The translations under genes and the position numbers were made by a program. The notes under the pieces are model-generated. The model was not told where the DNA came from and made no database searches. It worked only from the letters and a program-made list of their open reading frames with translations. From positions 1 through 44,017 of the forward strand of contig CAYNAD010000001.1 of the NCBI GenBank assembly GCA_964395215.1: a stretch of 44,017 nucleotides of DNA. The letters are read 5' to 3'. Origin of the DNA: an uncultured Candidatus Saccharibacteria bacterium. Lineage in GTDB: Bacteria; Patescibacteriota; Minisyncoccia; Minisyncoccales; PEYH01. Position 1 is the first letter of the stretch; every line of letters begins with the position of its first letter. Below are positions 4,428-25,925 of this stretch, in pieces.

Positions 4428-4464
4428 TAAAAAAAATAGGGGATGACGATAAATCGCCACCCCC
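4428..4464 (-). terminator. GC-rich hairpin terminator downstream of the 387-aa minus-strand gene
   Basis: Plus strand reads GGGGATGACGA-TAAA-TCGCCACCCCC. It is flanked by an A-run on the left, which is a T-run on the minus strand. Confidence 0.7.
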
Positions 4465-4474
4465 TTTTATTGCA

Positions 4475-5638
4475 TCATTGTGATGCTTCTAGCATCGAGA
4501 GTACCAAATCCAGAACCCTTTGTCCCGCCATGTAGTCAGTCTTGGGGAAGTCAGGATTTTTGAGGGTGCAGGTGAGCGTCCGTCTACGAAAACTTTCGCT
4601 TGTGAGTGCTCTTTTTATCAGACTTCTGCAGCCAAGTTTTGTGTATCCCACAGGAATCAATTTCTTTCTAGTGAGAATGAATTTGTCCTGCTCTGCCGAA
4701 AAACCGGGTTGAAGACTGAGACTTGGGCGATTCATATAGATCGCTTCTAAGCCAACAGTACTTCCAGTCATGAACACCGTAGAGCAAAAAGGGATTAATT
4801 CAATAGTGTTTATTTCTTCAGCCAAAACCATTTCTGGGCAGCCTTGAAGAAATCCCCTTATTTCTTTCTTTTCTTGTTTCGGCATTCTGGGATGTAAGGT
4901 TACTATTACTCTGGCAACCTCTTTTTGCTGTGTGGGTAATAAACCCAGAAGCTCAAGGCAAATTAGCCGGATGATGTCCATATCCCAAAATGGTAAGTTC
5001 TGTTCTGACTCTCTGAAGGCGTTGCCAGCATAGAGTGTGATAACTCCGCTGCCCAAGTCTAGTTTTCTTCGGATATCTGCTTCTTGATGACTACTCGCAG
5101 AACGGGCCTTCTCGAGATGGTTATCAAAATAGGGATTTCCTGTAATTACCAACTTGTTTCGAGGAAAACCCTGTTCAACCATTTCTCTTATAGCCAGAAC
5201 ATCCATTACCGCTATCTTGTCGGGCAAGTACTGAAAGCGCTCGCTGGAAAAGATGTCCGAAAATCTCTCAGTGTAGTTGCCCCAGAAATCCAGTACAGCC
5301 AAGGACTGAATTCTTAATTCCTTAGCAGCAAGCGTCAGGGTTTGCTCAATTACTTCCTTTTGGCTTTCTGCCTGTGAACTAGTGCCCGTGAGCACTAAGT
5401 CAGGTTCAACTTTTTGTAGAAGTTGTTTCATCGCAGACAAAGAAACGTCAGAGAGTCCGTAGTCGGCAAGTTCTTTATACACAATTCCGGCTTTAGCAAA
5501 GATAATTTTCGCCGGTGAATTATGTGCAACCACTGTGATTTCGGGTAGCTTTGGGTCTTGCTGAATTTTCCGCAAAACAGGGGCAATAGCATTTGCTGCG
5601 CCCGGATGGCACGCCGTCGCTAGTATCTTCTGGCTCAT
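4475..5638 (-). CDS. Hypothetical protein, GC-richer than its neighbours; possibly a two-Rossmann (GT-B-like) fold enzyme
   Basis: 387-aa ORF with AGGAGG 5 nt upstream of the ATG, plus its own promoter and terminator. Alternating beta-alpha patterns (ILATACHPGAANAIAPV, DLVLTGTS, FMTGSTVGLEAIY) suggest a GT-B/epimerase-like fold. I do not recognise a family. Confidence 0.6.
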   Translation of the reverse strand: MSQKILATACHPGAANAIAPVLRKIQQDPKLPEITVVAHNSPAKIIFAKAGIVYKELADYGLSDVSLSAMKQLLQKVEPDLVLTGTSSQAESQKEVIEQTLTLAAKELRIQSLAVLDFWGNYTERFSDIFSSERFQYLPDKIAVMDVLAIREMVEQGFPRNKLVITGNPYFDNHLEKARSASSHQEADIRRKLDLGSGVITLYAGNAFRESEQNLPFWDMDIIRLICLELLGLLPTQQKEVARVIVTLHPRMPKQEKKEIRGFLQGCPEMVLAEEINTIELIPFCSTVFMTGSTVGLEAIYMNRPSLSLQPGFSAEQDKFILTRKKLIPVGYTKLGCRSLIKRALTSESFRRRTLTCTLKNPDFPKTDYMAGQRVLDLVLSMLEASQ

Positions 5639-5700
5639 CGGTTCCTCCTTTTGGTTTGATATATTTGGTTATTATAGGGTACAGATTGGAATTTAAATTC

Positions 5701-5728
5701 ATTATACTATAATTCTTTATAAAGTCAA
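5701..5728 (-). promoter_or_regulatory. Sigma-70-type promoter for the 4475-5638 gene
   Basis: Minus strand reads TTGACT-16 nt-TATAAT, about 60 nt upstream of the ATG. Confidence 0.65.
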
Positions 5729-5750
5729 ATACGAAAAGAAATTAATAAAA

Positions 5751-5775
5751 TATACCCTTGCGCTATGTTTGACAT
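5751..5775 (+). promoter_or_regulatory. Conserved 25-nt box, copy 2 (TATACCCTTGCGCTATGTTTGACAT)
   Basis: 23/25 identical to 3894-3918. Located about 100 nt upstream of murB. Confidence 0.5.
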
Positions 5776-5791
5776 TTGTTATCATATAAGT

Positions 5792-5847
5792 GGGTCTCCG
5801 TGCTGCACTCGCTAATTAGATTTATCGGAGTTTAACGGCGGAGGCCC
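5792..5847 (+). promoter_or_regulatory. Structured GC-rich segment in the murB upstream region (candidate leader or small RNA)
   Basis: GGGTCTCCG (5792-5800) pairs with CGGAGGCCC (5839-5847). CTCCG can alternatively pair with CGGAG at 5826-5830. Confidence 0.3.
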
Positions 5848-5878
5848 GTAAGGGAAGAATTATCAATAATTAATTTCA

Positions 5879-6829
5879 ATGGTAGATATAAAAGTATTAT
5901 TACCAAAAATAAAAGAAAATGTACCCTTGGCTGGATATGCCAGTTTCAAGATAGGAGGATGGGCAAAATATTTCCTTGAAGCAAACACCAAGGAGGAATT
6001 AATTAGTGCCCTAAAGATAGTAGAGCAGGAAAATCTGCATTTTTTTATTTTAGCTGGCGGGAGCAATATTTTGTTTCCTGATAATGGTTTTGACGGTTTA
6101 GTGATTAAAATTCAGTTTTCAGATTTTAAATGTCTTGATTCTGGAATTTATGCCGAAGCAGGCGCTAAATTATCAGACATCGTAGATTTAGCAGCAGAGT
6201 CAGGGCTATCAGGTTTAGAGTGGGCAGCAGGCATCTATGGTACTGTAGGAGGCGCTGTGAGGGGTAATGCAGGGGCTTTTGACGGTTCTATGTCTTCTGC
6301 TATAGGAAAGGTAGAGGCCTTTGATATTGAAGACAAAGATATAAAGAGTTTTAATAATCAAGATTGTGAATTTGTTTATAGAGAAAGTATTTTTAAGAAG
6401 AATAAAAATTTAATTATTCTTTCAGCAGAGCTGAATTTTGTGAAGGGAGATAAAGAAAAGATAGAAGAACAGATGTGTAAAAATATTGAATATCGCAAGG
6501 AGAACCAACCTCTTGATAAACCTTCTGCTGGTTCAATTTTTAAAAATCCTGAATTTAAGATTATAAACAAGGAACTTTTAAAAGATTATCCTGATTTAAA
6601 AAAGTTTTCATCAAAAGGCATTGTTCCAGCTGGTTTTTTAATCGATAAAGCCGGGCTTGGAGGACAAAGAATAGGTAATGCCAGGATTTCTGAAAAACAC
6701 AGTAATTTTATAGTCAATCTTGGCAGAGCCAGAGCAGAAGATGTGATTAATTTGATAGATTTGGTTAAAGAGAAAATAGGAGCTCTTTTTGGCATTGAGC
6801 TTGATCATGAAATTAAAATTGTTAAATAG
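5879..6829 (+). CDS. murB: UDP-N-acetylenolpyruvoylglucosamine reductase
   Basis: 316-aa ORF with an FAD-binding PCMH-type N-terminal domain (NVPLAGYASFKIGGWAKYF, ILAGGSNILF) and a MurB C-terminal domain (PSAGSIFKNP, GNARISEKHSNFIVN). Confidence 0.9.
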   Translation: MVDIKVLLPKIKENVPLAGYASFKIGGWAKYFLEANTKEELISALKIVEQENLHFFILAGGSNILFPDNGFDGLVIKIQFSDFKCLDSGIYAEAGAKLSDIVDLAAESGLSGLEWAAGIYGTVGGAVRGNAGAFDGSMSSAIGKVEAFDIEDKDIKSFNNQDCEFVYRESIFKKNKNLIILSAELNFVKGDKEKIEEQMCKNIEYRKENQPLDKPSAGSIFKNPEFKIINKELLKDYPDLKKFSSKGIVPAGFLIDKAGLGGQRIGNARISEKHSNFIVNLGRARAEDVINLIDLVKEKIGALFGIELDHEIKIVK

Positions 6830-6834
6830 CTATT

Positions 6835-7233
6835 ATGATTATTCAAATTAAGGCCACGAATATTGAATTAAATGAATCACTCCGTATTTTTGTTGAAGAA
6901 AAGGTGAGCGAGCTTAAGAAAAATTTAGTTAAGTTTGAGGAAGTGCCCCAAATAGGAAGAGAGAAGATAGATGTTCGAGTAGAAATAGGCAGAACCACTC
7001 ATCATCATAAAAAAGGAGATATTTTTAGGGCAGAAATTCAGGTTTATCTGCCCAAGCAACTTTTAAGAGCAGTGGTAAAGAATATTGATTTAAGAAGTGC
7101 CATTATTGAAGCCAGAGATGAATTGGACAGGGAAATTCGGAAATACAAGGGCAAAAGATTGGGTCGGGCCAGAGGATGGGCAAGAAAGGTAAAAATGACT
7201 AGCAGGAATATGAGTCTTTTCAAAAGAAAATAG
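6835..7233 (+). CDS. hpf: Ribosome hibernation promoting factor / RaiA (YfiA) family protein
   Basis: 132-aa ORF. The N-terminus MIIQIKATNIELNESLRIFVEEKV is typical of the sigma-54-modulation/HPF family. Confidence 0.75.
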   Translation: MIIQIKATNIELNESLRIFVEEKVSELKKNLVKFEEVPQIGREKIDVRVEIGRTTHHHKKGDIFRAEIQVYLPKQLLRAVVKNIDLRSAIIEARDELDREIRKYKGKRLGRARGWARKVKMTSRNMSLFKRK

Positions 7234-7259
7234 CGTAAAATATTATATTTATTTTAATT

Positions 7260-7300
7260 AAGCCATTGCTCAAAGGGGCAGTGGCTTGACTTTTTATATT
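7260..7300 (+). terminator. Terminator after hpf
   Basis: AGCCATTGC ... GCAGTGGCT hairpin followed by T-rich sequence. Confidence 0.55.
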
Positions 7301-7346
7301 TTTATGTTATTTTAAATATAATCTCAAGTTAGCCAGGAGGTGGCTG

Positions 7347-8006
7347 ATGAAAGAACAAGAGCTTTTAGCAATATTGGCAACAGTAGTCGGAGCAGTACTT
7401 TTGGCTATTGCGGTTATACTTTCGGGAGGCGAAGTTGTAGTTCAAGGAGAATTTGTTTTACCTGTGGTGCTGGTTCAGTCCAACATTCTACCAGTTGCCG
7501 AGTTCATTTTTTCCTCGGACACTAATGCCGACGACGGTGTTGTCCGTTTCTCTGGAATTTCGTATGACCCGGACGGTTATATTGTGGACAGCACATGGAG
7601 CCTTGGAGACGGAACCCGAGGCGTCAAGGGTGACAGAATCGGTCATACCTATGCCGTAAGTGGCGTTTACACAGTGACTTTGACTGTTACCGACAATATG
7701 GGCGCTACAGATTCCAAGAGTAAACAAGTGGGTGCCTTCGTCAACCGCGGTCCGCATGCTCAGTTTACTGGAACGGTTAGTCGTTGCACCGGAGCCTATG
7801 CGTTATTGGAACTTGATGCGTCATCGTCATGGGACGATGGTTATATCGTGGGTTATCGTTGGTTCCAAAACGGCGAGGAATTGCCACGGTCCGGCGCACA
7901 AAAATCAATCTGGGTAACGTGTCGATCCACTTACAATATTGTCTTGATTGTGACGGACAATAATGGACGGCAAGATGATGCCTGCAGATTGATCTATGCA
8001 CCATGA
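7347..8006 (+). CDS. Secreted or membrane-anchored protein with two PKD-like Ig-fold domains
   Basis: 219-aa ORF with AGGAGG 7 nt upstream and an N-terminal hydrophobic helix. PKD signature WSLGDGTRG..HTYAVSGVYTVTLTVTDNMGATD, and a second degenerate PKD-like repeat. GC-richer than the core genes. Confidence 0.75.
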   Translation: MKEQELLAILATVVGAVLLAIAVILSGGEVVVQGEFVLPVVLVQSNILPVAEFIFSSDTNADDGVVRFSGISYDPDGYIVDSTWSLGDGTRGVKGDRIGHTYAVSGVYTVTLTVTDNMGATDSKSKQVGAFVNRGPHAQFTGTVSRCTGAYALLELDASSSWDDGYIVGYRWFQNGEELPRSGAQKSIWVTCRSTYNIVLIVTDNNGRQDDACRLIYAP

Positions 8007-8022
8007 GACCTATATCGTCCCG

Positions 8023-8070
8023 CCCCCCCCGCCCCCTGTTCTGTTTCTAGAACAGCGGGGCTTTCTTTTA
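8023..8070 (+). terminator. Terminator, copy 1 of a duplicated ~37-nt element (C8 tract + GCCCCCTGTTCTGTTTCTAGAACAGCGGGGC)
   Basis: The hairpin at 8031-8061 is identical to 8863-8893. A T-rich run follows. Confidence 0.8.
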
Positions 8071-8076
8071 TTATGC

Positions 8077-8105
8077 TTGACTGATTGTCATTTTAATGAT
8101 ATAAT
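8077..8105 (+). promoter_or_regulatory. Sigma-70-type promoter for the second PKD gene
   Basis: TTGACT-17 nt-TATAAT. Confidence 0.7.
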
Positions 8106-8134
8106 ATTAGTGAACGAAAGGAGAGGATTTCGAT

Positions 8135-8851
8135 ATGACTAAGAGAATTGTAGTAGCGGTAGCTGTGTCGGCTATGTTGATGATTTTTCTTTGTGGTTGT
8201 GAATTGATTCAGGGCTTTTTGCCCGGGCTTGTCCCAGAAGCTGTCATCAACATTACAGAAACACACCTTCAGCCAGGCAAGTCCGTCCCAGTGTCGGCAG
8301 AAGGATCAATGAGCCCCAGTGGGAATGCATTAACGAAGTTTATTTGGAACTTCGGCGATGGAACAGGCGAGATGGTTTCCCCTAACCCTTCCCATTCCTA
8401 TCAGAGAGGTGGTAGCTATACTATCACATTGGTAGTAGTAGACGATTTGGGATTACGCAGTAATCCAGCCACTATTCTGGTTACTGTCAACCATCGTCCT
8501 GTCCTTATAGGATTTCTAGAGGAGCTCACTGATTTTCCGAGTGGACAGGGATTCTATTGCATTCTAGATGGGCAAGTGATTTATCCCAATGCTAAGACTG
8601 GACCACTAGGGATTATCTCAGCAGTGCGTTACACATACTGGAAAATTGACTCTTCGTCTTCTTCTGATCCTGATGGATGGATTGTCTCTCGATACTTGAG
8701 TTGGTCAGGTCGTGACTTCGAAATCGGTCAAATTGATTATTTCGCGGTTCCAGCAGATGGAGATATTTATAGGAACCTGGGACTTACCCTGATCGACAAC
8801 GAAGGATTGAAGAACACTATATACTACGACGTAACCAGTCCTATTGGTTAG
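8135..8851 (+). CDS. Putative lipoprotein with PKD-like domains
   Basis: 238-aa ORF with a GGAGAGG SD. Signal peptide with a lipobox-like LCGC. PKD signature WNFGDGTGE..HSYQRGGSYTITLVVVDDLGL. Confidence 0.75.
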   Translation: MTKRIVVAVAVSAMLMIFLCGCELIQGFLPGLVPEAVINITETHLQPGKSVPVSAEGSMSPSGNALTKFIWNFGDGTGEMVSPNPSHSYQRGGSYTITLVVVDDLGLRSNPATILVTVNHRPVLIGFLEELTDFPSGQGFYCILDGQVIYPNAKTGPLGIISAVRYTYWKIDSSSSSDPDGWIVSRYLSWSGRDFEIGQIDYFAVPADGDIYRNLGLTLIDNEGLKNTIYYDVTSPIG

Positions 8852-8855
8852 GTCA

Positions 8856-8905
8856 CCCCCCCGCCCCCTGTTCTGTTTCTAGAACAGCGGGGCGCTTCTT
8901 TTTTT
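8856..8905 (+). terminator. Terminator, copy 2 of the duplicated element (C7 tract + identical hairpin)
   Basis: 8863-8893 is identical to 8031-8061 and is followed by a T-run. Confidence 0.8.
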
Positions 8906-8930
8906 GTTTTTAGTATGTTAGATTTAGAAT

Positions 8931-11423
8931 ATGTCTATACTCAAAAAAATCTTTGGGGACGAGAATGAAAAATATCTAAAGAAGATTCAGCCCTTGGCTG
9001 ATGAGATTAATAAGCTTGAAACAGAATTTGAGCGGTTTTCAGTTGAAGAGCTGAAAAGTAAAACAAAAGAGTTTAAAGAACAAATTAAAACAGGAACAAG
9101 TATAGATGCTCTTTTACCACGAGCATATGCTTTAGTGCGGGAAGCAGCTAAAAAAACATTAAATCAAAGACACTTTGATGTTCAACTGATTGGCGGTATT
9201 GCCCTGCATCAAGCCAAAGTGAATGAAATGAAAACAGGAGAAGGAAAAACTCTTGCCTCAACTCTGCCAACTTATCTAAATGCTTTAGAAGGAAAAGGAG
9301 TTCATGTTGTTACAGTAAATGAATACCTAGCAAAAAGAGATACTGTTTGGATGGGCCAAATATATCATGCCTTGGGCTTAACAGTTAGCTGTTTAGTTCA
9401 TCAAGGAGCTTTAATGTATGATCCTGATTATAAACCGGGCGAAGGGACGGAAGAACCGGAGGATTCAGAAGCACGGGATAAACAAAGGGATGAGCTTGGA
9501 GGATTTAAGGTCGTAGAAAGCTACTTAAGGCCTGTATCTAGAAAAGAGGCATATTTAGCAGACATTACTTATGGCATTAATCATGAATTTGGTTTTGATT
9601 ATTTGCGGGATAATATGGTCCATAATCCAGAGCAAAGAGTTCAGAGAGGGCTTAATTTTGCCATAATTGACGAAGTTGATTCTGTTTTAATAGATGAAGC
9701 TCGAACTCCTCTGATTATCTCCGCTCCTGACATGGAAAGTTCTGGACTTTATAAAGAGTTTTCTCAATTGATACCAAAATTGAGCAAGGATACTGATTAT
9801 GAACTTCACGAGAAAGAAAAAGCCGCTACTCTTACAGAGGAAGGTATTGAAAAAGTTGAAAAGATTCTTGGGCTTGAAAATATTTATCAAGAAAAAGGCA
9901 TTAGATATCTTCATTATTTAGAGCAGGCATTGAGGGCAAATGTTTTATTTCAAAAAGACAGGGATTATGTTTCTAAAAACGGCGAGATTATTATTGTTGA
10001 TGAGTTTACTGGTCGGTTAATGCCTGGCAGAAGATGGTCAGGGGGTTTACATCAGGCAATAGAGGCAAAAGAAGGACTTGATGTTAAACCAGAATCATTA
10101 ACCTTGGCTTCTATTTCTATTCAAAATTATTTTAGAATGTACGACAAGCTCGCTGGAATGACTGGTACTGCCGTTAGTTCTGCGGAAGAGTTTGAAAAAG
10201 TTTATAAACTTAATGTGGTTGTGATGCCGACTAACGAACCAGTTGCAAGAAAAGATTTATCAGATGTTGTTTATCAAACCAATAAAGAAAAATTAAAAGC
10301 ATTAGTGGAAAGAGTAAAACAAGCCCACGAAAAGGGTCAGCCGGTTTTGATTGGTACTCGGTCTATTGAAAAGAATGAGCTTTTGGGGGAAATGCTTAAA
10401 ATAGAGGGCGTTCCTCGTGAAATTTTGAATGCTAAACATCATCAGCGTGAAGGTGAAATTATTGCCCAAGCAGGTCGGTTCAAGGCAGTTACAGTTGCTA
10501 CCAATATGGCTGGCAGGGGAGTAGATATCGTGTTCGGGGGTAATCCGCCAAATCCCGAAGAGGCTAAAAAAGTAAAAGAATTGGGTGGGCTTTTAGTTTT
10601 GTGTACTGAAAGACATGAGGCAAGAAGAATTGATAATCAGTTAAGAGGTCGTTCTGGCAGACAAGGAGACCCGGGCGAGAGTCAATTTTTCCTGTCCATG
10701 GAGGATGACTTGATGAGGATTTTTGGCGGAGATAGAATAAAAGTTATGATGGAACGGCTCAAATTGCCGGAAGGCCAACCGATTCAGTCAAAGATAATAT
10801 CTAATGCAGTAGAGTCAGCTCAGGCGAAAATTGAAGGGATGAACTTTGATGCACGAAAACATCTTCTAGAATATGATGATGTAATGAATATTCACAGAAC
10901 TTCTTTTTATAAAAAGAGAAATATGATTGTTGATTCAAATGATGGAGAGATAAAAGAATTGGTCTTAGAATATTTTAATAATCAAAAAGCTGATAAAAAT
11001 AATCTCGATAAAAAAGAAAAAGAATTCGGCAACGAATTTGGTAATGTTTTGCGATATGTTTGTCTAAAAATTTATGATTCACTCTGGCTTAATCATTTAA
11101 CAGAAATGGATTATTTGCGGGACAGGGTTCGCTTGCGCGCCTATGGGCAAATGGACCCATTAGTGGAGTACAAAACTGAAGGTTATAACATGTTTAAACA
11201 ATTATTCGACACATTAGAGAAAAACATTGTAGAAGCAATAACTAATGTAGCGTTAAAACCCCAAGGATCAATGCTTGGAAAATCAACTTCAAAAACATTG
11301 GAACAGGTTGAAAACAGGAGTTCTGCACAGGGTGAAACTATACAAGGCAAGAAAAAGCCAGGCAGGAATGATTCCTGTCCTTGTGGCTCGGGCAAAAAGT
11401 ATAAAAAATGTTGTGGAAAATAA
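8931..11423 (+). CDS. secA: Preprotein translocase ATPase SecA
   Basis: 830-aa ORF with SecA DEAD motor motifs (MKTGEGKTL, DEVDSVLIDEARTPLIIS) and the C-terminal zinc-binding CPCGSGKKYKKCCG. Confidence 0.97.
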   Translation: MSILKKIFGDENEKYLKKIQPLADEINKLETEFERFSVEELKSKTKEFKEQIKTGTSIDALLPRAYALVREAAKKTLNQRHFDVQLIGGIALHQAKVNEMKTGEGKTLASTLPTYLNALEGKGVHVVTVNEYLAKRDTVWMGQIYHALGLTVSCLVHQGALMYDPDYKPGEGTEEPEDSEARDKQRDELGGFKVVESYLRPVSRKEAYLADITYGINHEFGFDYLRDNMVHNPEQRVQRGLNFAIIDEVDSVLIDEARTPLIISAPDMESSGLYKEFSQLIPKLSKDTDYELHEKEKAATLTEEGIEKVEKILGLENIYQEKGIRYLHYLEQALRANVLFQKDRDYVSKNGEIIIVDEFTGRLMPGRRWSGGLHQAIEAKEGLDVKPESLTLASISIQNYFRMYDKLAGMTGTAVSSAEEFEKVYKLNVVVMPTNEPVARKDLSDVVYQTNKEKLKALVERVKQAHEKGQPVLIGTRSIEKNELLGEMLKIEGVPREILNAKHHQREGEIIAQAGRFKAVTVATNMAGRGVDIVFGGNPPNPEEAKKVKELGGLLVLCTERHEARRIDNQLRGRSGRQGDPGESQFFLSMEDDLMRIFGGDRIKVMMERLKLPEGQPIQSKIISNAVESAQAKIEGMNFDARKHLLEYDDVMNIHRTSFYKKRNMIVDSNDGEIKELVLEYFNNQKADKNNLDKKEKEFGNEFGNVLRYVCLKIYDSLWLNHLTEMDYLRDRVRLRAYGQMDPLVEYKTEGYNMFKQLFDTLEKNIVEAITNVALKPQGSMLGKSTSKTLEQVENRSSAQGETIQGKKKPGRNDSCPCGSGKKYKKCCGK

Positions 11424-11424
11424 T

Positions 11425-11916: not shown

Positions 11917-12037
11917 AAGTTAAGCAATGAGAGTATAAGATTGTGGTGTCTTCGACTGGAAGTGAAACTTAAAAATTTGCCGAGATCGTTTTGGCAATTT
12001 TTTTTCGGCAATTTATCAGCACAGATATTAAATTAAA

Positions 12038-12059
12038 ATGGAAACCAGGTTTCCACGAG
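12038..12059 (+). repeat. REP-like palindrome, copy 1 (ATGGAAACCAGGTTTCCACGAG)
   Basis: Perfect palindrome TGGAAACC-A-GGTTTCCA, 43 nt upstream of the RAYT-like gene. Confidence 0.8.
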
Positions 12060-12101
12060 TTTTGTTTTTACAGATTGGATTTTAAGATATAAAATAGAAG
12101 C

Positions 12102-12755
12102 ATGAGGAAAATCAAATTCGTAAATGGAGAATATTATCATATATTAAATCGCGGAGTAGATAAGCGGAATATTTTTCTTGATAAAGAAGACTTAAGAAGA
12201 TTTATTCAAGGATTGCAGGAATTTAATACACTTGATCCAATTGGTAGTATTTACGAATCTCAACTTCGTAAAAAGCATAACGAAAATGGAAACCTGGTTT
12301 CCACGAGAGATGATTCAAAGATTGTAGATTTCATCTGCTATTGTATAAATCCGAATCATTATCATTTTATCTTAGTGCAACTTTCAGATAATGGAATAAG
12401 AAAATTTATGCAACGGATAGCACTTGGGTATTCAAAATATTTTAATCTGAAATATAAAAGAAGTGGAACTTTATTTCAGGGTCCATATAAGGCAACTCAT
12501 ATTGATTCAAATGATTATTTGCTTCATGCGAGCGCTTATATAAATTTAAACAACAAAGTTCATGGATTAGAAAATGTACTTTATAAATCTAGTTGGGGAG
12601 AATATTGTCAAGATAATTATAAGGGGATAGCTTTTTGTAAGAAAGATATTATACTAAAACAATTTTTAAATTCGGATGAATATAAGAGTTTTGCAGAAGA
12701 ATCATTGAAATCTATTCACGAAAGAAAGGAATTAGAAAAATTATTGTTAGATTAA
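12102..12755 (+). CDS. IS200/IS605-type HUH (Y1) transposase-like protein, REP-associated tyrosine transposase (RAYT)-like
   Basis: 217-aa ORF with N-terminal YHILNRGVDKRNIF, the HUH motif NHYHFIL, and a C-terminal catalytic-Tyr region SAYINLNN. Confidence 0.75.
   Translation: MRKIKFVNGEYYHILNRGVDKRNIFLDKEDLRRFIQGLQEFNTLDPIGSIYESQLRKKHNENGNLVSTRDDSKIVDFICYCINPNHYHFILVQLSDNGIRKFMQRIALGYSKYFNLKYKRSGTLFQGPYKATHIDSNDYLLHASAYINLNNKVHGLENVLYKSSWGEYCQDNYKGIAFCKKDIILKQFLNSDEYKSFAEESLKSIHERKELEKLLLD
12285..12309 (+). repeat. REP-like palindrome, copy 2, inside the RAYT-like CDS
   Basis: AATGGAAACCTGGTTTCCACGAGAG, read in frame as ENGNLVSTR. Confidence 0.8.
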
Positions 12756-12806: not shown

Positions 12807-12834
12807 TTGACTTCCTGGATTTTTATGTTAGATT
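12807..12834 (+). promoter_or_regulatory. Sigma-70-type promoter
   Basis: TTGACT-16 nt-TAGATT. Confidence 0.5.
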
Positions 12835-12840: not shown

Positions 12841-12984
12841 TCTATAGCACCTTACAATTAGTAAGGTTGTGGCTCTTAGGGTAGTAGTTTTGTTGCCACT
12901 TTAAGAGTCGCAACCTTAGGTTGAGGCAAATCCACCAATAGGCGCGTCGCCAAAAGGCGGCTTGTCACAAAAAAGGAGTATGTC
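12841..12984 (+). promoter_or_regulatory. Long structured 5' leader (candidate cis-regulatory RNA) of the 12985 ORF
   Basis: Two mutually exclusive helices. ACCTTAC/GTAAGGT (12849-12867) competes with the 14-bp helix GGTTGTGGCTCTTA (12865-12878)/TAAGAGTCGCAACC (12902-12915). A further GTCGCC/GGCGGC hairpin precedes the SD. Confidence 0.35.
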
Positions 12985-13611
12985 ATGTTCAGAGTGGCGG
13001 GTTCCGAAGGGTTTGGGAAAGAAGTTGGGCTTGTTGAAGAGATGATTAAGACAGGTAGGAGAGTGGGGGCGAGTAGATCTTTTTATGCTGCTCTTGCTCA
13101 CGATAATGATCTTTTTCAAAGAATGGTTGCCCTTGTTGCCCTAGAGAAGGGAGTAACAATAACTACTATTGGTGCGGAATGTTCGTTCGGGGTGATGATT
13201 TCTATCGCTTCAAATCAGAGGAACTACAGTTACGATGGCGCTCTTGGTCGGCTTCACCCAGGACTTATTGGGCCAGACCATTTTGAAATCACGGAGTTCG
13301 GATTCGTTGGCACAGAGACACGACTCTACTGCAACGATGCCTTAAGGGCTCTTGTTGATGAGGGTTTGTCTATATGCAAGCTTCGAGACATTCCAGCTCT
13401 TGTGGCTTCGTGCCCGCGTTTACCAGATTTTAAGCCCATCATCGTGCTTTCTGACGAATTGCCCATAGAGGGATCCGTTGTGGTTATCAGTCGTGATCAT
13501 CGCGGGCGTGGCAATATGAGTATTGAAAAGCCTATTTCAGACAGACACTGGGCTCATCATCCCATGTTCGTTGGACGGCGTGAATCGAAAGTGAAACCCC
13601 TTCATTCCTAA
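12985..13611 (+). CDS. Hypothetical protein (no recognisable family), GC-rich orphan
   Basis: 208-aa ORF with an AGGAG SD 6 nt upstream. A hand count of line 13261-13320 gives 29/60 GC. It has its own GC-rich terminator. Confidence 0.6.
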   Translation: MFRVAGSEGFGKEVGLVEEMIKTGRRVGASRSFYAALAHDNDLFQRMVALVALEKGVTITTIGAECSFGVMISIASNQRNYSYDGALGRLHPGLIGPDHFEITEFGFVGTETRLYCNDALRALVDEGLSICKLRDIPALVASCPRLPDFKPIIVLSDELPIEGSVVVISRDHRGRGNMSIEKPISDRHWAHHPMFVGRRESKVKPLHS

Positions 13612-17170: not shown

Positions 17171-17171
17171 C

Positions 17172-18237: not shown

Positions 18238-18292
18238 AGCTTTAGCTAAACTCTAATCTCAATTTTCAATTTTCAATTAGAAACTAGTTTTA

Positions 18293-19594: not shown

Positions 19595-21366
19595 TGTCTA
19601 CAAAGGAGGATAATGTTACATTTTTAGGGAGAACTAATTTTAGAAATGTCCAAAAAAAGTTTGGCATTAAATTAGATGATAGAAGAAAACATGTATACAT
19701 TATCGGTAAGACGGGAATGGGCAAGACAACCCTTTTGGCGAATATGGCTGCCCAAGACATTCAGGACGGATTTGGTGTGGCTTTTATTGATCCTCATGGG
19801 GAACAAGCAGAAGCGCTGTTAGACTATGTTCCAAAAGAGAGAGTAAAAGATGTTGTTTATTTTAATCCTTCAGATATTAAATTTCCGATTGGATTTAATA
19901 TTATGGAGGTTAAAGATCCGGACATTCGGCATCTTATTGCCTCTGGATTAATGGGCGTGTTCAAAAAGATTTGGCCTGATGTTTGGTCTGCTAGGATGGA
20001 ATATATTTTAAACAATTCTATTTTAGCTCTACTTGAATATCCTGGCTCTACTTTACTCGGCATCAACAGGATGATGGCGGATGTGGATTACAGGAAGAAA
20101 GTTATTGATAAGGTGATGGATCCCGTTATTAAGGCCTTCTGGACCCAAGAATTTGCTCGCTATACTCAAAGATATGAAGTTGAGGCAACAGCAGCTATTC
20201 AGAATAAAATAGGTCAATTCATTTCCAATCCCCTGATTAGAAATATTCTTGGCCAAACCAATTCCTCAATTAGCATGAGGGATATAATGGACGAGAAAAA
20301 GATTTTGATAGTCAACTTGTCAAAAGGAAGAATGGGCGAAGCGAATTCTATGCTTTTAGGTGCTTTGGTCATTACAAAGCTTTACTTAGCCGCTATGTCC
20401 CGAATTGATATTAAAGAAGAAGAAAGAAAAGATTTTTTTCTTTACGTTGACGAGTTTCAGAATTTTGCTACTGAATCATTCGCCAGTATATTGTCTGAAG
20501 CTAGGAAATACCGACTTTGTTTAATAATGGCTCATCAATATATTACTCAAATGGAAGAGATGGTTAGGGATGCTGTTTTTGGAAATGCAGGCACTATTAT
20601 TAATTTTAGAATTGGAGCTGAAGACGGAGAATATTTAGAGAAAGAATTTGCTCCCGTTTTTGCAGTGGGGGATTTTGTAAATCTTCCAAAGTTTAATATT
20701 TATATAAAGCTTATGATTGACGGGGTGGCAGGCCGACCGTTTTCTGCTGAAACCCTGCCACCGATACCAAAGCAAGAGCATTCTCTAAGAGAGGAAATTA
20801 TTCAAAACTCGCGGGATAAATATGCAGTAAAAAGAGAGCTTATAGAAGAGGAAATTTCAAGATGGGCTACAATGGATACTGCGGGGACAAAACCGAATAA
20901 AAATAATAAAAGAGATAATAATAGATATAGTCAGGATAGTCGAAAGAAAAATAATCAGAATAGTCAGAATAATCAGAATAGTCAGAATAGTCAGAATAGT
21001 CAGAATAGCCAAAATAAAGATAATAGAGACGATCGCAATAGGAATAGCGGAGATAACCGAAGTAAAAGTAATCATGAAGTTAAGATAACTTCTCCGCAGG
21101 AAAAAATTGTTAAAACTATTTCTTTGGAGGATGCCACGAAAAAAGAACCAATATTTTTTAGCGCTCATCATAAGAATAATAAAAATAACCATCATCGTCC
21201 CAAAGAAAAAATTGATACTGGTGGTTTAAAAGAAGCAATCAAAGATGCTTTAGAAAATAGAGAGAATAAGGGTCATAAAATAGAGAATCAGAAAAATGAA
21301 AAAACATTGCAAGAGAAAGGAGAAAAAGGGTATCTAAAGCCGGGACAAAAAATTAGTTTTGATTAA
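19594..21366 (+). CDS. VirD4/TraG/TraD-type or HerA-like (DUF87/AAA_10-like) P-loop NTPase with a low-complexity C-terminal tail
   Basis: 590-aa ORF with Walker A GKTGMGKTT (aa 38-46), FIDPHGE, Walker B FFLYVDEFQNF and SEARKYRLCLIMAHQY. No N-terminal TM helices. The last ~170 aa are N/K/R/D/Q/S-rich. Confidence 0.7.
   Translation: MSTKEDNVTFLGRTNFRNVQKKFGIKLDDRRKHVYIIGKTGMGKTTLLANMAAQDIQDGFGVAFIDPHGEQAEALLDYVPKERVKDVVYFNPSDIKFPIGFNIMEVKDPDIRHLIASGLMGVFKKIWPDVWSARMEYILNNSILALLEYPGSTLLGINRMMADVDYRKKVIDKVMDPVIKAFWTQEFARYTQRYEVEATAAIQNKIGQFISNPLIRNILGQTNSSISMRDIMDEKKILIVNLSKGRMGEANSMLLGALVITKLYLAAMSRIDIKEEERKDFFLYVDEFQNFATESFASILSEARKYRLCLIMAHQYITQMEEMVRDAVFGNAGTIINFRIGAEDGEYLEKEFAPVFAVGDFVNLPKFNIYIKLMIDGVAGRPFSAETLPPIPKQEHSLREEIIQNSRDKYAVKRELIEEEISRWATMDTAGTKPNKNNKRDNNRYSQDSRKKNNQNSQNNQNSQNSQNSQNSQNKDNRDDRNRNSGDNRSKSNHEVKITSPQEKIVKTISLEDATKKEPIFFSAHHKNNKNNHHRPKEKIDTGGLKEAIKDALENRENKGHKIENQKNEKTLQEKGEKGYLKPGQKISFD
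20956..21018 (+). repeat. In-frame 9-bp tandem repeat (CAGAATAGT)n encoding (QNS)n
   Basis: Seven consecutive units (six near-identical plus a degenerate last one, CAAAATAAA) within the ATPase tail. Confidence 0.9.
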
Positions 21367-21386
21367 CAATTTTTAAGAGGTATAAT
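21359..21386 (+). promoter_or_regulatory. Sigma-70-type promoter placed for a leaderless pgk transcript
   Basis: TTGATT-16 nt-TATAAT, with the -10 box ending 7 nt before the pgk ATG. No SD is present. Confidence 0.5.
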
Positions 21387-21393
21387 AATAATA

Positions 21394-22557
21394 ATGAAAG
21401 ATATCAAAGATTTCCAATTTTACGAGAAAAAAGTTCTTGTTAGAGCTGATTTTAATGTACCCATTCATAATGGCAAAATTTTGGATGATTTTAAAATTAT
21501 AAAATCTCTGCCCACAATTAAATATTTAAAAGAACAAGGAGCTAAAATTATTTTGATAAGTCATTTGGGCAGGCCTCAAGAAGGTGAAAAAGTTAGCTTA
21601 AGCCCAATAGCTGTAAAATTAGAAGAATTGCTTGAGTGTAAAGTGAATTTCATTAATGATTGTGTTGGCAGGGGAGCACAAAAGGCAGTAAATAAAATGG
21701 TTTCCGGAGATATCGTTTTACTTGAAAACTTGAGGTTTTTTGCTGGAGAGGAACAGAACGATGAGGTCTTTGCAAAACAACTAGCCAACTTGGCTGAAAT
21801 CTATATCAACGACGCTTTTGCCTGTAGCCATAGGGAACATGCCTCAATTGTAGGCGTTCCAAAGTTATTGCCAAGCGCAGCAGGATTTTTATTGAAAGAG
21901 GAAATTACCACCCTGTCTTCAGTTATAAAGAATCCAAAGCGACCATTAATAGCGATTTTTGGAGGCGCAAAACTTGAAACAAAATTACCCTGCTTATTGA
22001 ATTTTTTAAAAAAATCAGATCATTTGATTATCGGCGGGATGCTAGCACCCGTAATTTTAGCTATTAAAAAGATAGCTATCAGCGGTCAACATTTCAATGA
22101 GGAACTGGAAGAGAAAGTTAGAAGCATTGAGCTGACAAATCCAAAATTTCATATGCCCATTGACGCGCTAGTTGGTTTGAGAGATCACAAGGTAGACTAT
22201 TTAAGACAGTCAGCTGTTGGTAATATTAGAAGCGAAGAGCAAATGTTTGATATTGGGCCTGAAAGTGTGAGGATTTTTTCTGACATTATTAAGGAGGCAG
22301 GTACAATCATTTGGAATGGTCCTCTTGGTTTTATAGAAGATGAAAGATTTGCTAACGGGACATTATCTATAGCAAATGCTATTTTAAGGAATTCTGCTTT
22401 TTCAGTTGTGGGCGGAACTGACACAGATAGTTTTTTAGCTAAAAATAATTTAAGGGAAAAATTTGGATATGTATCCACTGGTGGAGGCGCGATGCTAGAG
22501 TTTTTAAGTGGAGAAGAATTTCCCGGAATAAAGGCATTGGATTCAGAAAATGAATAA
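21394..22557 (+). CDS. pgk: Phosphoglycerate kinase
   Basis: 387-aa ORF with motifs RADFNVP, ISHLGRP and GGGAMLEFL. Confidence 0.95.
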   Translation: MKDIKDFQFYEKKVLVRADFNVPIHNGKILDDFKIIKSLPTIKYLKEQGAKIILISHLGRPQEGEKVSLSPIAVKLEELLECKVNFINDCVGRGAQKAVNKMVSGDIVLLENLRFFAGEEQNDEVFAKQLANLAEIYINDAFACSHREHASIVGVPKLLPSAAGFLLKEEITTLSSVIKNPKRPLIAIFGGAKLETKLPCLLNFLKKSDHLIIGGMLAPVILAIKKIAISGQHFNEELEEKVRSIELTNPKFHMPIDALVGLRDHKVDYLRQSAVGNIRSEEQMFDIGPESVRIFSDIIKEAGTIIWNGPLGFIEDERFANGTLSIANAILRNSAFSVVGGTDTDSFLAKNNLREKFGYVSTGGGAMLEFLSGEEFPGIKALDSENE

Positions 22558-23755
22558 GAAAAAATTTCCCAAAGGCATAAACGAGGTGAGTCAAAGAGTA
22601 ATAAAGGCGGCTGAACATTCTGAACCTGTTGTTATTTTTGGCGATTCCGATTTAGACGGAATCTCTTCTGTCGTTATTCTCCAAGAGCTTTTTGAGTTTC
22701 TAAATCCTTTATATGGAGGAAAAAACTTATCAGTTTATTTCTCAAACAGAGAGATAGAAGGATACGGCTTAAGTTTTTCAGTTCTTGAGTCTATAAAAGA
22801 CAGGGCACCGGCCCTGTTATTTATTTTAGATGCGGGAATAAGTAATTTTGAGGAAATAAAAAAAGCTAAGAAAATGGGATTTGAGGTGATTGTGATTGAT
22901 CATCATCAGATTTTAAAAAAACTGCCAAAAGCAGACTTAATTGTTGACCCTAAGCAGAAAGAAGAGAGCTATCCGTTTAAATATTTCGCTGCAGCAGGCC
23001 TTGTTTATAAGTTGGCGCAAAGGGTTTTAGAAGAGAAAAAACATCCTGATTTTTTAGAAGATCGACTTTCAGAGTTAGCTGCCTTGGCCACTATAGCTGA
23101 TATGGTGCCCATAGAGGAGGATAATGAGGAAATTATTAATCAAGGATTAGAAGCGCTTACCAGTACTCAGCGTACTGGAATTCTGGCTCTGATACAATTA
23201 AATGATATTGACATTAATTCAGACCAGGATATTTCTCAAAAGATTATTGCTCCTTTGAATACTTTTAAAATAAAGGATCATGTTGCAGAAAGTTATACTC
23301 TACTTACGGAATCATCTTTTCCAAAAGCTAAGAAATTGGCTCAAAAATTGATTCGTCAGACCAAAGAAAAAAAGCGGGCAATTAAGATGTTTGTTAATGA
23401 ATTGAAAGAAGAGGTTGAAAAAAGAGACAGTAAGAAATCTGTAATTTTTAAATATAGTAAGGCATGGAATGCGGTTTATCTCGGTATAATTGCCTCTAAG
23501 CTTTTAAATTTCTCTAAAAAGCCGGTTTTTGTTTGTAGACAGGGCGAGAATAAGGAATGTGTTTGTTCTGCTCGTTTGCCTAAGCCTTTAGATGGAGTTA
23601 AAGCAATGGAGGCCTGCAAAAAGCATTTAATAACCTATGGCGGGCATGCTCCTGCTTGTGGTTGTCGGGTTAAAGAGGAAGATTTGGATAAGTTTGGGAA
23701 ATGTTTAGAGAAATATTTTAAACAATTAAAAATTGAAATTAATGATGAGCAATAA
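22550..23755 (+). CDS. DHH/DHHA1 family phosphoesterase (short RecJ-like)
   Basis: 401-aa ORF with motifs IFGDSDLDGISS and VIVIDHHQ, and C-terminal GGHAPACG. It overlaps the pgk stop by 8 nt. Confidence 0.75.
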   Translation: MNKKKFPKGINEVSQRVIKAAEHSEPVVIFGDSDLDGISSVVILQELFEFLNPLYGGKNLSVYFSNREIEGYGLSFSVLESIKDRAPALLFILDAGISNFEEIKKAKKMGFEVIVIDHHQILKKLPKADLIVDPKQKEESYPFKYFAAAGLVYKLAQRVLEEKKHPDFLEDRLSELAALATIADMVPIEEDNEEIINQGLEALTSTQRTGILALIQLNDIDINSDQDISQKIIAPLNTFKIKDHVAESYTLLTESSFPKAKKLAQKLIRQTKEKKRAIKMFVNELKEEVEKRDSKKSVIFKYSKAWNAVYLGIIASKLLNFSKKPVFVCRQGENKECVCSARLPKPLDGVKAMEACKKHLITYGGHAPACGCRVKEEDLDKFGKCLEKYFKQLKIEINDEQ

Positions 23756-24179
23756 TGCGGATTATATAATTTATACAGACGGGGCGTCCAAGGGGAATCC
23801 AGGTCCTTCTTCAGTTGGAGTTGCAATATATGACAGTGCAGGTGTGTCTTTGAAGGATTGTTTTAAAGCAATAGGTAGGGCCACTAATAATGTAGCTGAA
23901 TATCAGGCAGTTATTTTTGCCTTAAAAAAAATAAAGGCCTTGTATGGGAAAAAGAAGGCCAAGGAAAGCGTGGTCTTGATTAACTCAGATTCAAGACTTT
24001 TAGTTAAGCAGTTGAATGGAGAATTCAGATTAAAAGATGAAAAGATAAAAGAGCTTTTTATTGATGTGTGGAATGAGAAAATGGATTTTAAAAAAGTTTT
24101 ATTCAACCAAATTCCAAGAGAAAAAAATGAGAGAGCAGATGCTTTGGCCAATCAAGCGTTTGGAGGAGGATTACTCTAG
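23742..24179 (+). CDS. Ribonuclease H (type 1, RNase HI-like)
   Basis: Motifs YTDGASKGNPGPSSVG, NNVAEYQAVIFAL, NSDSRLLVKQL and REKNERADALANQA. I prefer the ATG at 23742 over the TTG at 23733. Confidence 0.8.
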   Translation: MMSNNADYIIYTDGASKGNPGPSSVGVAIYDSAGVSLKDCFKAIGRATNNVAEYQAVIFALKKIKALYGKKKAKESVVLINSDSRLLVKQLNGEFRLKDEKIKELFIDVWNEKMDFKKVLFNQIPREKNERADALANQAFGGGLL

Positions 24180-24209
24180 GCGTTGTTCTAGAATATAAGG
24201 CATATTATC

Positions 24210-24240
24210 CAAAAAGCCCCTTAAAATGGGGCTTTTTGGA
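24210..24240. terminator. Bidirectional terminator shared by the RNase H gene (+) and rnpB (-)
   Basis: CCAAAAAGCCCC-TTAAAAT-GGGGCTTTTTGG. Confidence 0.8.
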
Positions 24241-24562
24241 TGCCTAAGTAGGCAATAGGCCGAATTCTGTTTTAAGTGATCATCTATCTAGCCCCTCGAT
24301 TACTCTCGGGGTCATGCGAGCTACTATGTTTGCTCTTGCACCCGGGCAAGGATTTAGCCGTTTCACTCTTTAGGTTTTCCTAAAGATTCACCCCTAAGGG
24401 TGCCTTTTAGCTTTCGCTTCAAGGCGTCACTGTTCGCACCTCTATCGTCACCGACGACGGGAGTTACCCGCTGCCTGTGTCAAAAAGACAGGGTGTTCGG
24501 ACCTTCCTCTCCTTATTAATGCAAAGCGTTAACAAAGAGCGATCACTTCGACTACTTAGGCA
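24241..24562 (-). ncRNA. rnpB: RNase P RNA (bacterial type A-like)
   Basis: The reverse complement contains GAGAGGAAGGTCCGAACAC (the P4 5' strand, GAGGAAAGUCCGGGC in E. coli) and ACAGAATTCGGCCTAT (the P4 3' strand). P1 is formed by TGCCTAAGTAG and CTACTTAGGCA at the two ends. Confidence 0.9.
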
Positions 24563-24567
24563 TTTTT

Positions 24568-24595
24568 ATTATATCTAGAATATAGAGTTTGTCAA
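24568..24595 (-). promoter_or_regulatory. Consensus sigma-70 promoter of rnpB
   Basis: Minus strand reads TTGACA-16 nt-TATAAT, ending 5 nt before the P1 5' end. Confidence 0.8.
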
Positions 24596-24660
24596 TAAAA
24601 GTGGTTAATATATACATACATTTGGAGATTTTTAGGAGGATAGCAATATCTTCTAATGTA

Positions 24661-24694
24661 AAAAATCAACGAGGCCCGTCCTCGTTGATTTTAT
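24661..24694. terminator. Bidirectional-looking hairpin terminator
   Basis: ATCAACGAGG-CCCGT-CCTCGTTGAT, flanked by an A-run on the left and a T-run on the right. Confidence 0.6.
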
Positions 24695-24700
24695 TTTATA

Positions 24701-24733
24701 TAAAAAGGCAGGCGTCGCCGAAGCGTCGCCTGC
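24701..24733 (-). terminator. Terminator of the deoxynucleoside kinase gene
   Basis: GCAGGCGTCGC-CGAA-GCGTCGCCTGC with one internal mismatch. A T-run follows on the minus strand. Confidence 0.7.
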
Positions 24734-24739
24734 TCGTTG

Positions 24740-25468
24740 TTAGTTCTGAATAAGAGCAAGTCTCTCATTGATAGCAGAGGTTAACTCTTGAGCTGTCCAT
24801 GATCTTTCGCCGTCGAGAACCAAGACAGGAACCCTTGGAATTTCCTCGAATTCAGTTTCGTTTTGTTCGGGGAGGATTAAGGGAGCGGTTCCGCTGTCAT
24901 CACTGTATAACCAGCGCTCGTGGAGTTCATGAAGATCCATGAGGTACTGGGGCGCGATAGCATTTTCTTCTTGGCGCTCATGGAGAGGGAGTCTGTCGAA
25001 ACAGACTTGAGGAGATACTCGGTAGTAGACAATGAGATCAGGAATTGCGATATGACTTTCTCTAAACTCAAAATTCCACATACGTCGGTAAACATCCCAC
25101 TCTATAGGCTTCATTGATTTGTTGGCCAAGCAGTTCCAGGCGAAGATATTTCGGTCGCAGAAGACAGACCTCTCTAGAGCCATAGTTGAGTGATCATTCA
25201 ACTTCAGCACGTCGGTCCAGTTCTTTGTCCTAGTAGTAAAAGCAGCCATTTGGAAAGTGAAAGCCCAGCGCTTCGGTTTTCTATAGAAGAGATCAAGAAG
25301 ATTGATGTACTTGATTTTACCCTTTACCGTAATCGGCCAGTTCCTCCAGAGTTTTACGGGCTCTTGTATCGTTCCCCATTCTTCTGTAGCGGCTAAAGTT
25401 TCCAGTACAGTCGATTTGCCTGAAGTAATGTTGCCTTCAAATAGTATCATGGTGCGTTCTTCCTCCAT
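24740..25468 (-). CDS. Deoxynucleoside kinase (dAK/dGK/dCK family)
   Basis: 242-aa ORF with AGGAGG upstream. P-loop EGNITSGKST, ERS motif ALERSVFCDRNIF, and a lid region with R residues. GC-richer than the core genes. Confidence 0.8.
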   Translation of the reverse strand: MEEERTMILFEGNITSGKSTVLETLAATEEWGTIQEPVKLWRNWPITVKGKIKYINLLDLFYRKPKRWAFTFQMAAFTTRTKNWTDVLKLNDHSTMALERSVFCDRNIFAWNCLANKSMKPIEWDVYRRMWNFEFRESHIAIPDLIVYYRVSPQVCFDRLPLHERQEENAIAPQYLMDLHELHERWLYSDDSGTAPLILPEQNETEFEEIPRVPVLVLDGERSWTAQELTSAINERLALIQN

Positions 25469-25526
25469 TTAGAGCCTCCTTGTGGGTTGCGTAATCTGTT
25501 AGTGTGCAGCTTGAGAACTTTAAATA

Positions 25527-25586
25527 ATCCTATTTCTTTTCTCTTAAATAGTCAAGATTGACATTCTTATAATCAGGTGTTAATTT
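25527..25586. promoter_or_regulatory. Divergent promoter pair with back-to-back -35 boxes in a palindrome
   Basis: AGTCAA-GA-TTGACA at 25550-25563. The plus strand reads TTGACA-17-TAATTT and the minus strand reads TTGACT-17-TAGGAT. Confidence 0.5.
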
Positions 25587-25619
25587 TATTATAGAAACTT
25601 GTAGTTTAAGGAGGGTAAT

Positions 25620-25877
25620 ATGTCGGGAGTTAGTTTTGAAACAGGAGCAGTATTTGAGAGTATTCCAGGAGACATTTCCGACGTTGTAGTAACTATACGC
25701 CGGGATGCGAATGGGATAGTAATCGGCACTTCTCGGATAAAAGGGAAGCCAGGAATCAATAAGGATGGGGTTCGTTTCTTATTGGAAAAAGGTGGAGCAT
25801 ATTTTATCGGAGATGATCATATGCCCGTTAAGCAAAGAATCGAAATGTTCCAACAGCTCGGAGGGGAACTACAATAG
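25620..25877 (+). CDS. Hypothetical small protein (85 aa)
   Basis: AGGAGG lies 5 nt upstream of the ATG and the gene has its own terminator. I do not recognise a family. Confidence 0.6.
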   Translation: MSGVSFETGAVFESIPGDISDVVVTIRRDANGIVIGTSRIKGKPGINKDGVRFLLEKGGAYFIGDDHMPVKQRIEMFQQLGGELQ

Positions 25878-25886
25878 TAACGTAGC

Positions 25887-25925
25887 GGGGATGGGTGCAA
25901 TCTGTGCCTACCCCCACTTTTTTTT
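25887..25925 (+). terminator. Rho-independent terminator
   Basis: Imperfect GC-rich hairpin GGGGATGGGTGC...GTGCCTACCCCC followed by T8. Confidence 0.65.

Follow-up and report, generated by a model that had tools for sequence, protein, structure and literature searches.

The window analysed here is a stretch of DNA of 44,017 nucleotides (nt), the whole of contig C1 (44 kb) of a 616 kb Parcubacterial genome (64 contigs, ~90% complete, GC 0.36), labelled G000 below, with G001 denoting its congener. Two classes of genes exist in this genome, namely AT-rich core genes that start without a Shine-Dalgarno (SD) box and a minority of GC-richer genes led by an AGGAGG-type box that is conserved among orthologs, in an organism whose own 16S rRNA carries no anti-SD. 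We consider it on balance probable that the whole is explained by an anti-SD-less Parcubacterium with an imported, box-bearing gene set in which the box has been kept by selection, the elevated GC content of these genes probably reflecting incomplete amelioration.

Under this explanation the 16S rRNA would have lost its anti-SD, and core genes would accordingly start without a box. Some ~6% of genes would make up a compositionally foreign, flexible set received, boxes included, from G+C-richer bacteria that use SD initiation; thymidine kinase (TK) and deoxynucleoside kinase (dNK) would have come from Bipolaricaulota, the remainder from other Parcubacteria or from untraced donors. The majority of class genes now lie behind native-looking, AT-rich sigma-70 promoters and are ended by strong hairpin terminators. 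The exception is the thymidylate synthase gene thyA, embedded as it is in a conserved nusG-L11-dcd-thyA-folA-gatB operon.

The box-led gene class

The 40 nt before each long open reading frame (ORF) of the window were read for a box. Six genes had been listed in the initial annotation, made from the sequence of the window alone, as having strong SD sites, and an AGGAGG-type box does lie 4–9 nt before the ATG in 6/6 of them:

4475–5638, minus strand: 387-aa protein, GC 0.447; AAAAGGAGGAACCG-ATG, with GGAGG at 5644–5648 (minus strand), 5 nt before the ATG; no counterpart at this site in G001
7347–8006, plus strand: 219-aa membrane-anchored PKD-domain protein, GC 0.480; CCAGGAGGTGGCTG-ATG, with GGAGG at 7336–7340; absent in G001
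8135–8851, plus strand: 238-aa PKD-domain protein with a lipobox-like N-terminus (PKD2), GC 0.450; AAAGGAGAGGATTTCGAT-ATG, with GGAGAGG at 8120–8126
12985–13611, plus strand: 208-aa orphan, GC 0.475; AAAAGGAGTATGTC-ATG, with AGGAG at 12974–12978 and a promoter-like site at 12807–12834; absent in G001
24740–25468, minus strand: dNK (PF01712), GC 0.453; CAAGGAGGCTCTAA-ATG, with GGAGG at 25475–25479
25620–25877, plus strand: 85-aa orphan, GC 0.434; TTAAGGAGGGTAAT-ATG, with GGAGG at 25610–25614

These genes display GC of 0.43–0.48 and GC at third codon positions (GC3) of 0.36–0.49, compared to 0.28–0.39 and 0.20–0.42 in the remaining window genes, which have AT-rich leaders, no box and duplex energies with ACCUCCUUA that are mostly > -4; secA (8931–11423, plus strand; GC 0.374, no box, 85% identical to G001) is an example. 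The earlier description of the core genes as SD-less and AT-rich is thus accurate, as are, to the base, the three hand counts of GC in 60-nt lines that accompanied it (29/60, 15/60 and 20/60). The 387-aa protein itself has no Pfam match, and its homologs, which are rare (49 database matches), carry PF02350/PF04464 (TagB/F-like CDP-glycerol glycerophosphotransferase fold). No Pfam or PHROG match was found for the 208-aa orphan.

Box strength was measured genome-wide over 619 ORFs of at least 70 aa, produced by a simple caller of our own, as the duplex energy of the upstream 18 nt with ACCUCCUUA, values of -8 kcal/mol or below being counted as strong. The anti-SD energy comparison that the initial annotation had proposed ties strong boxes to high GC, since they precede 33/60 ORFs with GC ≥ 0.42 and 16/559 others (Fisher p = 2e-26). 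The association persists on contigs of at least 10 kb (p = 3e-20) and at least 20 kb (p = 9e-12), and therefore does not come from short, possibly mis-binned contigs. GGAGG at a spacing of 4–9 nt leads 27/58 GC-rich ORFs and turns up a single time at any other position within the 60 nt before them; in the upstream regions of 535 low-GC ORFs it is scattered. Some of the 27 GC-rich ORFs that lack a box can be put down to spurious calls across RNA genes or to wrongly called starts. The same association is also present in three partial genomes from the same genus, family and order (G001, p = 0.0015; G022, p = 3e-5; G029, p = 0.015, respectively).

We estimate that the SD-led class comprises about 35–45 genes, or about 6% of the gene set, and it looks foreign in all composition measures taken. 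GC at the three codon positions is.535/.398/.433 in the class and.44/.326/.291 in the rest; Lys is used at 0.47x, Arg at 1.4x and Cys at 2.1x the frequency of the rest, with Trp and His also higher; and TGA stops account for 39% compared to 15%. Tetranucleotide distance from the core set is 0.043, where random same-size subsets of the rest reach at most 0.016; codon and tetranucleotide usage, whose comparison the initial annotation had proposed, both deviate. As for bimodality of GC, the histogram shows a shoulder but not a clean second mode. The fold energy of the 60 nt downstream is -17.9 kcal/mol for class genes and -7.6 kcal/mol for other genes.

Many class genes are orphans. Those with a Pfam match are the dNK at 24740–25468, a TK, a thymidylate synthase, a thymidylate kinase adjoining a histidine phosphatase, an HD hydrolase, a DUF218 protein, a CDP-alcohol phosphatidyltransferase, a WG-repeat protein and four PKD-domain surface proteins, two of them in the window. 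Core genes have a start context of their own, in which position -1 is T in 55% and position -3 is A in 53% of cases and leaders are A-rich, and this context is not found in the SD-led class.

The ribosome and the origin of the boxed genes

The 16S rRNA of G000 has the 3' end ...GUAGAUUAUUUAAUUU, with no CCUCC anti-SD. As the assembly does not include the 3' half of the gene, this end was read from metagenome contig L186, which is 100% identical to the G000 16S over 940 nt and ends ...GTAGATTATTTAATTT; the sample that yielded L186 is also the source of a contig identical to the window. The corresponding ends are ...GTAGATCATTTAATTT in the congener and ...GGAACAATTAATAT in a genome of the same order, and a hidden anti-SD 3' of the 16S was rejected, there being no CCTCC in the next 600 nt of these two genomes. 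CCTCC is also missing from the 16S end of eight further relatives (78–97% 16S identity). The relatives all have genomes of 0.3–1.5 Mb and belong to Parcubacteria / Paceibacterota by their named records, and uL1 was not found in the genome; the organism is a uL1-less Parcubacterium, matching the anti-SD-less group of PMC9297842. With no anti-SD in the 16S rRNA of this organism, SD-dependent translation of the canonical kind is excluded, and with it the alternative offered in the initial annotation, a separately regulated SD-dependent translation class, at least in its canonical form.

At -25..-7 of core genes, six-mers that are complementary to the 16S tail of G000 itself (GAUUAUUUAAUUU-3') are enriched 1.4-fold over composition-matched six-mers, a level that 0/200 controls reached, and there is no enrichment further upstream. 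Pairing of this AU-rich tail with core leaders could be a weak replacement pairing, the enrichment being only 1.4-fold. In a genome of the same family (G022:C15, from ~30060 onward; L063) the 16S is broken by a long insertion right after ...GAAGTCGT (position ~1500).

Contig C16 of G001 is syntenic with the window. Some of the boxed cassettes are present in only one of the two congeners, and those that are shared have diverged more rapidly than core genes. Core genes are 71–92% identical. The genes at 4475–5638, 7347–8006 and 12985–13611 have no counterpart at the equivalent sites of G001, and the three cassettes at shared sites are 58% (8135–8851), 46% (dNK) and 35% (85-aa gene) identical. 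All three are still GC-rich and box-led there; the syntenic ortholog of PKD2 has AAGGAGG and that of the 85-aa gene AAGGAG.

It is hardly credible that assembly or binning created the GC-rich segments as chimeras with a co-occurring higher-GC organism. Many class genes do lie on short contigs or close to a contig end, 48% being within 1.5 kb of an end compared to 35% of other genes, a difference that is not significant (p = 0.13). However, the six window genes are embedded between core genes on a 44-kb contig, the association of GC and box holds on contigs of at least 20 kb, orthologs of the cassettes are found at matching positions in G001 and in other genera, and the promoters of the cassettes are of native style and rich in AT. 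Assembly breakpoints at the cassette borders, a concern raised at the outset, are not borne out either, as independent assemblies of other samples (ENA, JGI) join the dNK cassette to both its RNase P RNA and its murJ side.

Two kinds of mobile element were considered as vehicles and rejected. For a phage origin, neither dNK nor the 387-aa protein had relatives on viral contigs and PHROGs gave only a weak kinase match; the cassettes are flanked by secA, murB, secD and murJ, with no prophage context. For integron-like cassettes, no 3' repeat common to the class flanks was found (only local pairs, e.g. a 38-nt terminator following PKD genes), an integrase not having been searched for.

The best 120 database matches of TK are 63–69% identical, and all named ones among them are from Bipolaricaulota or Acetothermia, one of these sitting on a contig of GC 0.60 with native gene GC. 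TK is present in 18/24 genomes of the family and in 2/16 genomes of other families; in G000 as in G001 the distance between it and the 16S gene is ~9.5 kb. Its monophyly in Parcubacteria is borderline (approximately unbiased (AU) test, p = 0.053), the Parcubacterial TKs being scattered among Bipolaricaulota in the tree. The nearest relatives of dNK outside the candidate phyla radiation (CPR) are from Bipolaricaulota and Anaerolineae, at 40–46% identity. dNK is present in 5/24 family genomes and 0/16 of other families, and in three genera its locus is flanked by RNase H and murJ. In the dNK tree two Parcubacterial copies are nested in Bipolaricaulota and five form a long-branch group, and a single Parcubacterial clade is not rejected (AU p = 0.365).

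In Bipolaricaulota and Anaerolineae the GC of dNK is 0.52–0.66, equal to its flanks, whereas in Parcubacteria it lies 5–18 points above them. A gene of native composition and broad occurrence in Bipolaricaulota, but of outlier composition and narrow range in Parcubacteria, is more readily explained by transfer into the latter. We infer that TK and dNK trace to Bipolaricaulota (GC 52–66%, SD-using), which their sequences identify as nearest relatives, with the direction of transfer suggested by composition and distribution. The sample series LacPavin and MM_PC contain records of both partners, which is only a hint of co-occurrence.

The initial annotation had proposed horizontal acquisition as self-contained cassettes, possibly from a higher-GC donor such as a host. 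For part of the class, acquisition from a higher-GC donor is supported by best hits and phylogeny of TK and dNK, which lead to Bipolaricaulota, and by the absence of 3/6 cassettes from the congener. The description as self-contained cassettes does not extend to ThyA, which groups with Parcubacterial ThyAs and whose gene lies within nusG-L11-dcd-thyA-folA-gatB, an arrangement conserved across the order; thyA is therefore not a self-contained foreign cassette. Nor are the class genes recent arrivals, as TK and dNK occupy the same loci in several genera.

Promoter-like and terminator-like sites are present where they had been placed around the window cassettes:

5701–5728, minus strand: promoter-like site TTGACT-16-TATAAT, 11/12 matches, serving gene 4475–5638
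4438–4465, minus strand: terminator hairpin of gene 4475–5638
8077–8105: promoter of PKD2, 11/12 matches
8024–8061, plus strand: poly-C and hairpin terminator of 38 nt, with an identical copy at 8856–8893 after PKD2

Promoter-like sites with 9/12 matches precede 7347, 12985 and dNK, and hairpin and T-run terminators follow window genes 4475, 7347 and 8135. The promoter fails as a mark of the class, however, because promoters of the same quality (11/12) precede core genes, secD among them. The 38-nt terminator is also kept after the G001 ortholog of PKD2, and the two PKD genes of the window are divergent. In the comparison of PKD2 between congeners the promoter and terminator flanks are 86–90% identical and the ORF 73% at the nucleotide level; slower divergence of flanks than of ORF was rejected as a trait of the class, having been seen for PKD2 only, with no such pattern for dNK.

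Persistence of the box and candidate readers

In 12 genomes of the family, TK has a gene GC of 0.41–0.53 compared to 0.30–0.39 in its flanks, and a strong AAGGAGG in 10/12, the box being weakened by one or two bases in the other 2/12. In genus g6 the GC3 of TK is.25–.31, which is the native level, and AAGGAGG is still present. Pairwise identity of the AGGAGG core is 0.89 for TK (12 genomes) and 0.92 for dNK (7 genomes), and that of the 8 nt just upstream of the core is 0.36 and 0.27 respectively. Terminal protein branches in the TK and dNK trees measure 0.3–2.2 changes per site, and over such distances an AT-biased genome should have eroded a G-rich hexamer had it been neutral. Since the box persists where GC3 is native, it looks selected rather than a passive relic. 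It has probably been kept by selection, and thus would do something in a cell that is unable to pair it with its 16S rRNA.

A rival account bears on the origin of the class only. In it, the genes form a travelling pool of single genes that is re-seeded from SD-using reservoirs (Bipolaricaulota and anti-SD-bearing Parcubacteria), and box and GC are marks of the donor without a role that seem conserved as copies are replaced faster than they decay. We regard this account as possible, if doubtful. Presence or absence of cassettes between congeners fits it, as do the nesting of two dNKs inside Bipolaricaulota and the divergence of dNK, which is 46% identical to G001 and 48–51% to other genera, i.e. 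as diverged within the genus as between genera. The scatter of TKs among Bipolaricaulota (monophyly AU p = 0.053) also makes repeated re-seeding possible. However, TK and dNK are at the same loci across genera, and the in-place swap of ~50% identical alleles has no obvious mechanism; the g6 clade of TK, with its native GC3 and long branches, retains AAGGAGG; the adjacent leader bases are randomised and the box is not; and monophyly of dNK is not rejected (p = 0.365). The fixed loci and the ameliorated g6 clade in particular argue against repeated re-seeding.

Several points nevertheless weigh against an imported gene set whose box is retained by selection. Gene starts were the output of a crude ORF caller, most class members are orphans of untraceable origin, and the borderline monophyly of TK (AU p = 0.053) is such that repeated re-acquisition from SD-using donors could refresh the box even if the recipient made no use of it. 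The G000 dNK has a branch of 2.25 changes/site yet a GC of 0.45, which is unexplained by simple amelioration. ThyA clusters with Parcubacterial ThyAs and diverges at the rate of its operon neighbours, and thyA is box-less with native GC in most families; its state in G000 would go back either to replacement at its own locus by a copy from the same phylum or to alteration of the resident gene. Finally, no reader of the box was found among the two candidates looked at, CsrA and an RNA encoded at 27915–28105. CsrA was rejected as a reader of the GGA box, as PF02599 was not found in G000 (90% complete), and the RNA, which has an anti-SD-like loop, was rejected as a family-wide reader, its hairpin having been found only in G000 and the congener, and SD-led TK and dNK occurring in genera where the strict hairpin pattern had no match.

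Some observations fit an endogenous class, consisting of the organism's own genes in which box and GC-rich codons are held by selection for a separate expression mode, with no transfer. ThyA, Parcubacterial by phylogeny, operon and neighbour-like divergence, yet has a AAAGGAGG box and GC raised by 8–10 points in G000 and two close metagenome relatives; a GC of 0.45 is maintained on very long dNK branches; and the pattern recurs across the order. We consider this account improbable, given the clear affinity of TK and dNK to Bipolaricaulota, the shifts in amino acids and stop codons typical of foreign origin, the many class genes missing from close relatives, the decay of TK GC3 to the native level in some lineages and the lack of an anti-SD in the cell to serve such a mode.

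The RNA at 27915–28105 (plus strand) lies between murJ and lepA, is ~190 nt long from promoter to terminator and has a fold z of -3.9. It contains a 10-bp hairpin with the anti-SD-like loop UUCCUCCUU; the congener copy has a compensatory stem change and the loop UGACCUUCUU, which is still able to pair with AGGAGG. It has no Rfam match, and the strict hairpin pattern has no match outside the genus. An apparent SD on rplM, a low-GC core gene of G001, proved to be the KEE-stop end of rplQ and not a box.

That AGGAGG is actually used, being read by a trans-acting RNA (e.g. 27915–28105) or protein or by the ribosomes of a partner cell that does use SD initiation, appears conceivable but unlikely. 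Were it read by something other than 16S rRNA, this would amount to a second, gated translation route for imported genes. The partner-cell variant, with e.g. a Bipolaricaulota host, is suggested by analogy with T-DNA genes, which carry host-type signals.

Neighbouring features and relation to known systems

Other features of the window lie beside the boxed genes:

12102–12755, plus strand: IS200/RAYT-like gene, very AT-rich (GC 0.28), with palindromes on either side
24240–24559, minus strand: RNase P RNA gene, outside the SD class
~5700–5878, plus strand: conserved leader upstream of murB with its own TTGACA promoter, shared with G001 (C16 2140–2355)
24662–24692: palindromic element of ~31 nt (AAAATCAACGAGG...CCTCGTTGATTTT) downstream of dNK

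The RAYT gene is absent in the congener together with the adjoining GC-rich orphan 12985–13611. The RNase P RNA gene accounts for part of a rise in GC at 24.0–24.6 kb. The murB leader is a candidate cis-regulatory RNA, and the palindrome, which recurs on contigs C7, C52, C11 and C9, looks like a repetitive extragenic palindromic (REP)-type repeat.

Loss of the anti-SD in this type of lineage is already known: Tsurumaki, Saito, Tomita and Kanai (2022, RNA 28:1041, PMC9297842) described Parcubacteria with tiny genomes, without CCUCCU in the 16S tail and without uL1, in which SD helices are thought not to form. Ours is the same type of lineage, and a positioned, conserved AGGAGG on a minority of genes, as found here, was not reported there. 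More widely, anti-SD loss accompanies loss of most SD boxes, and surveys, in which anti-SD-less organisms are reported to have no SD boxes, have concluded that these organisms do not use the SD mechanism at all (Lim 2012; Amin 2018, PMC6107228; Nikolaeva 2020, PMC7782861), whereas in the present lineage a conserved SD-led minority persists. A conserved, well-spaced box in such a lineage challenges the view that anti-SD loss means that SD initiation has been given up.

In Patescibacteria, imports make up several per cent of the genome and are mostly intra-phylum, donors outside the phylum being occasional (Gios et al. 2025, mSystems, PMC12455944). That study contained no analysis of translation signals and did not have Bipolaricaulota among its listed donors. 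Unlike the islands described in it, the imports here consist mainly of single genes and bear an SD box for which the recipient has no pairing partner. We found no paper describing an SD-led gene minority in an anti-SD-less organism; the new points are Bipolaricaulota as donors of two salvage kinases, ThyA as a counter-example and a box that outlasts the amelioration of GC3.

The box may have either of two meanings. It may be a long-lasting tag of foreign genes, useful for tracing transfer into, and the partners of, uncultured CPR bacteria, or it may have a reader other than the 16S tail. The two kinases, if derived from Bipolaricaulota, point to a candidate partner or host of this family of Parcubacteria and would account for the salvage enzymes of a cell that lacks nucleotide synthesis.

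Two further systems offer partial parallels. Phage morons, a concept associated with Hendrix and Juhala, are said to be autonomous promoter-gene-terminator units with a composition unlike their surroundings; the likeness lies in autonomy and deviating composition, but the cassettes described here have no prophage and stand at fixed loci among core genes. Bacteroidia, according to work on Flavobacterium johnsoniae, reportedly retain an SD on rpsU in the presence of an anti-SD that exists but is sequestered. They resemble the present case in that most genes are SD-less, a few have strong SDs and core starts are A-rich, and differ from it in that the anti-SD is sequestered there and missing from the rRNA here.

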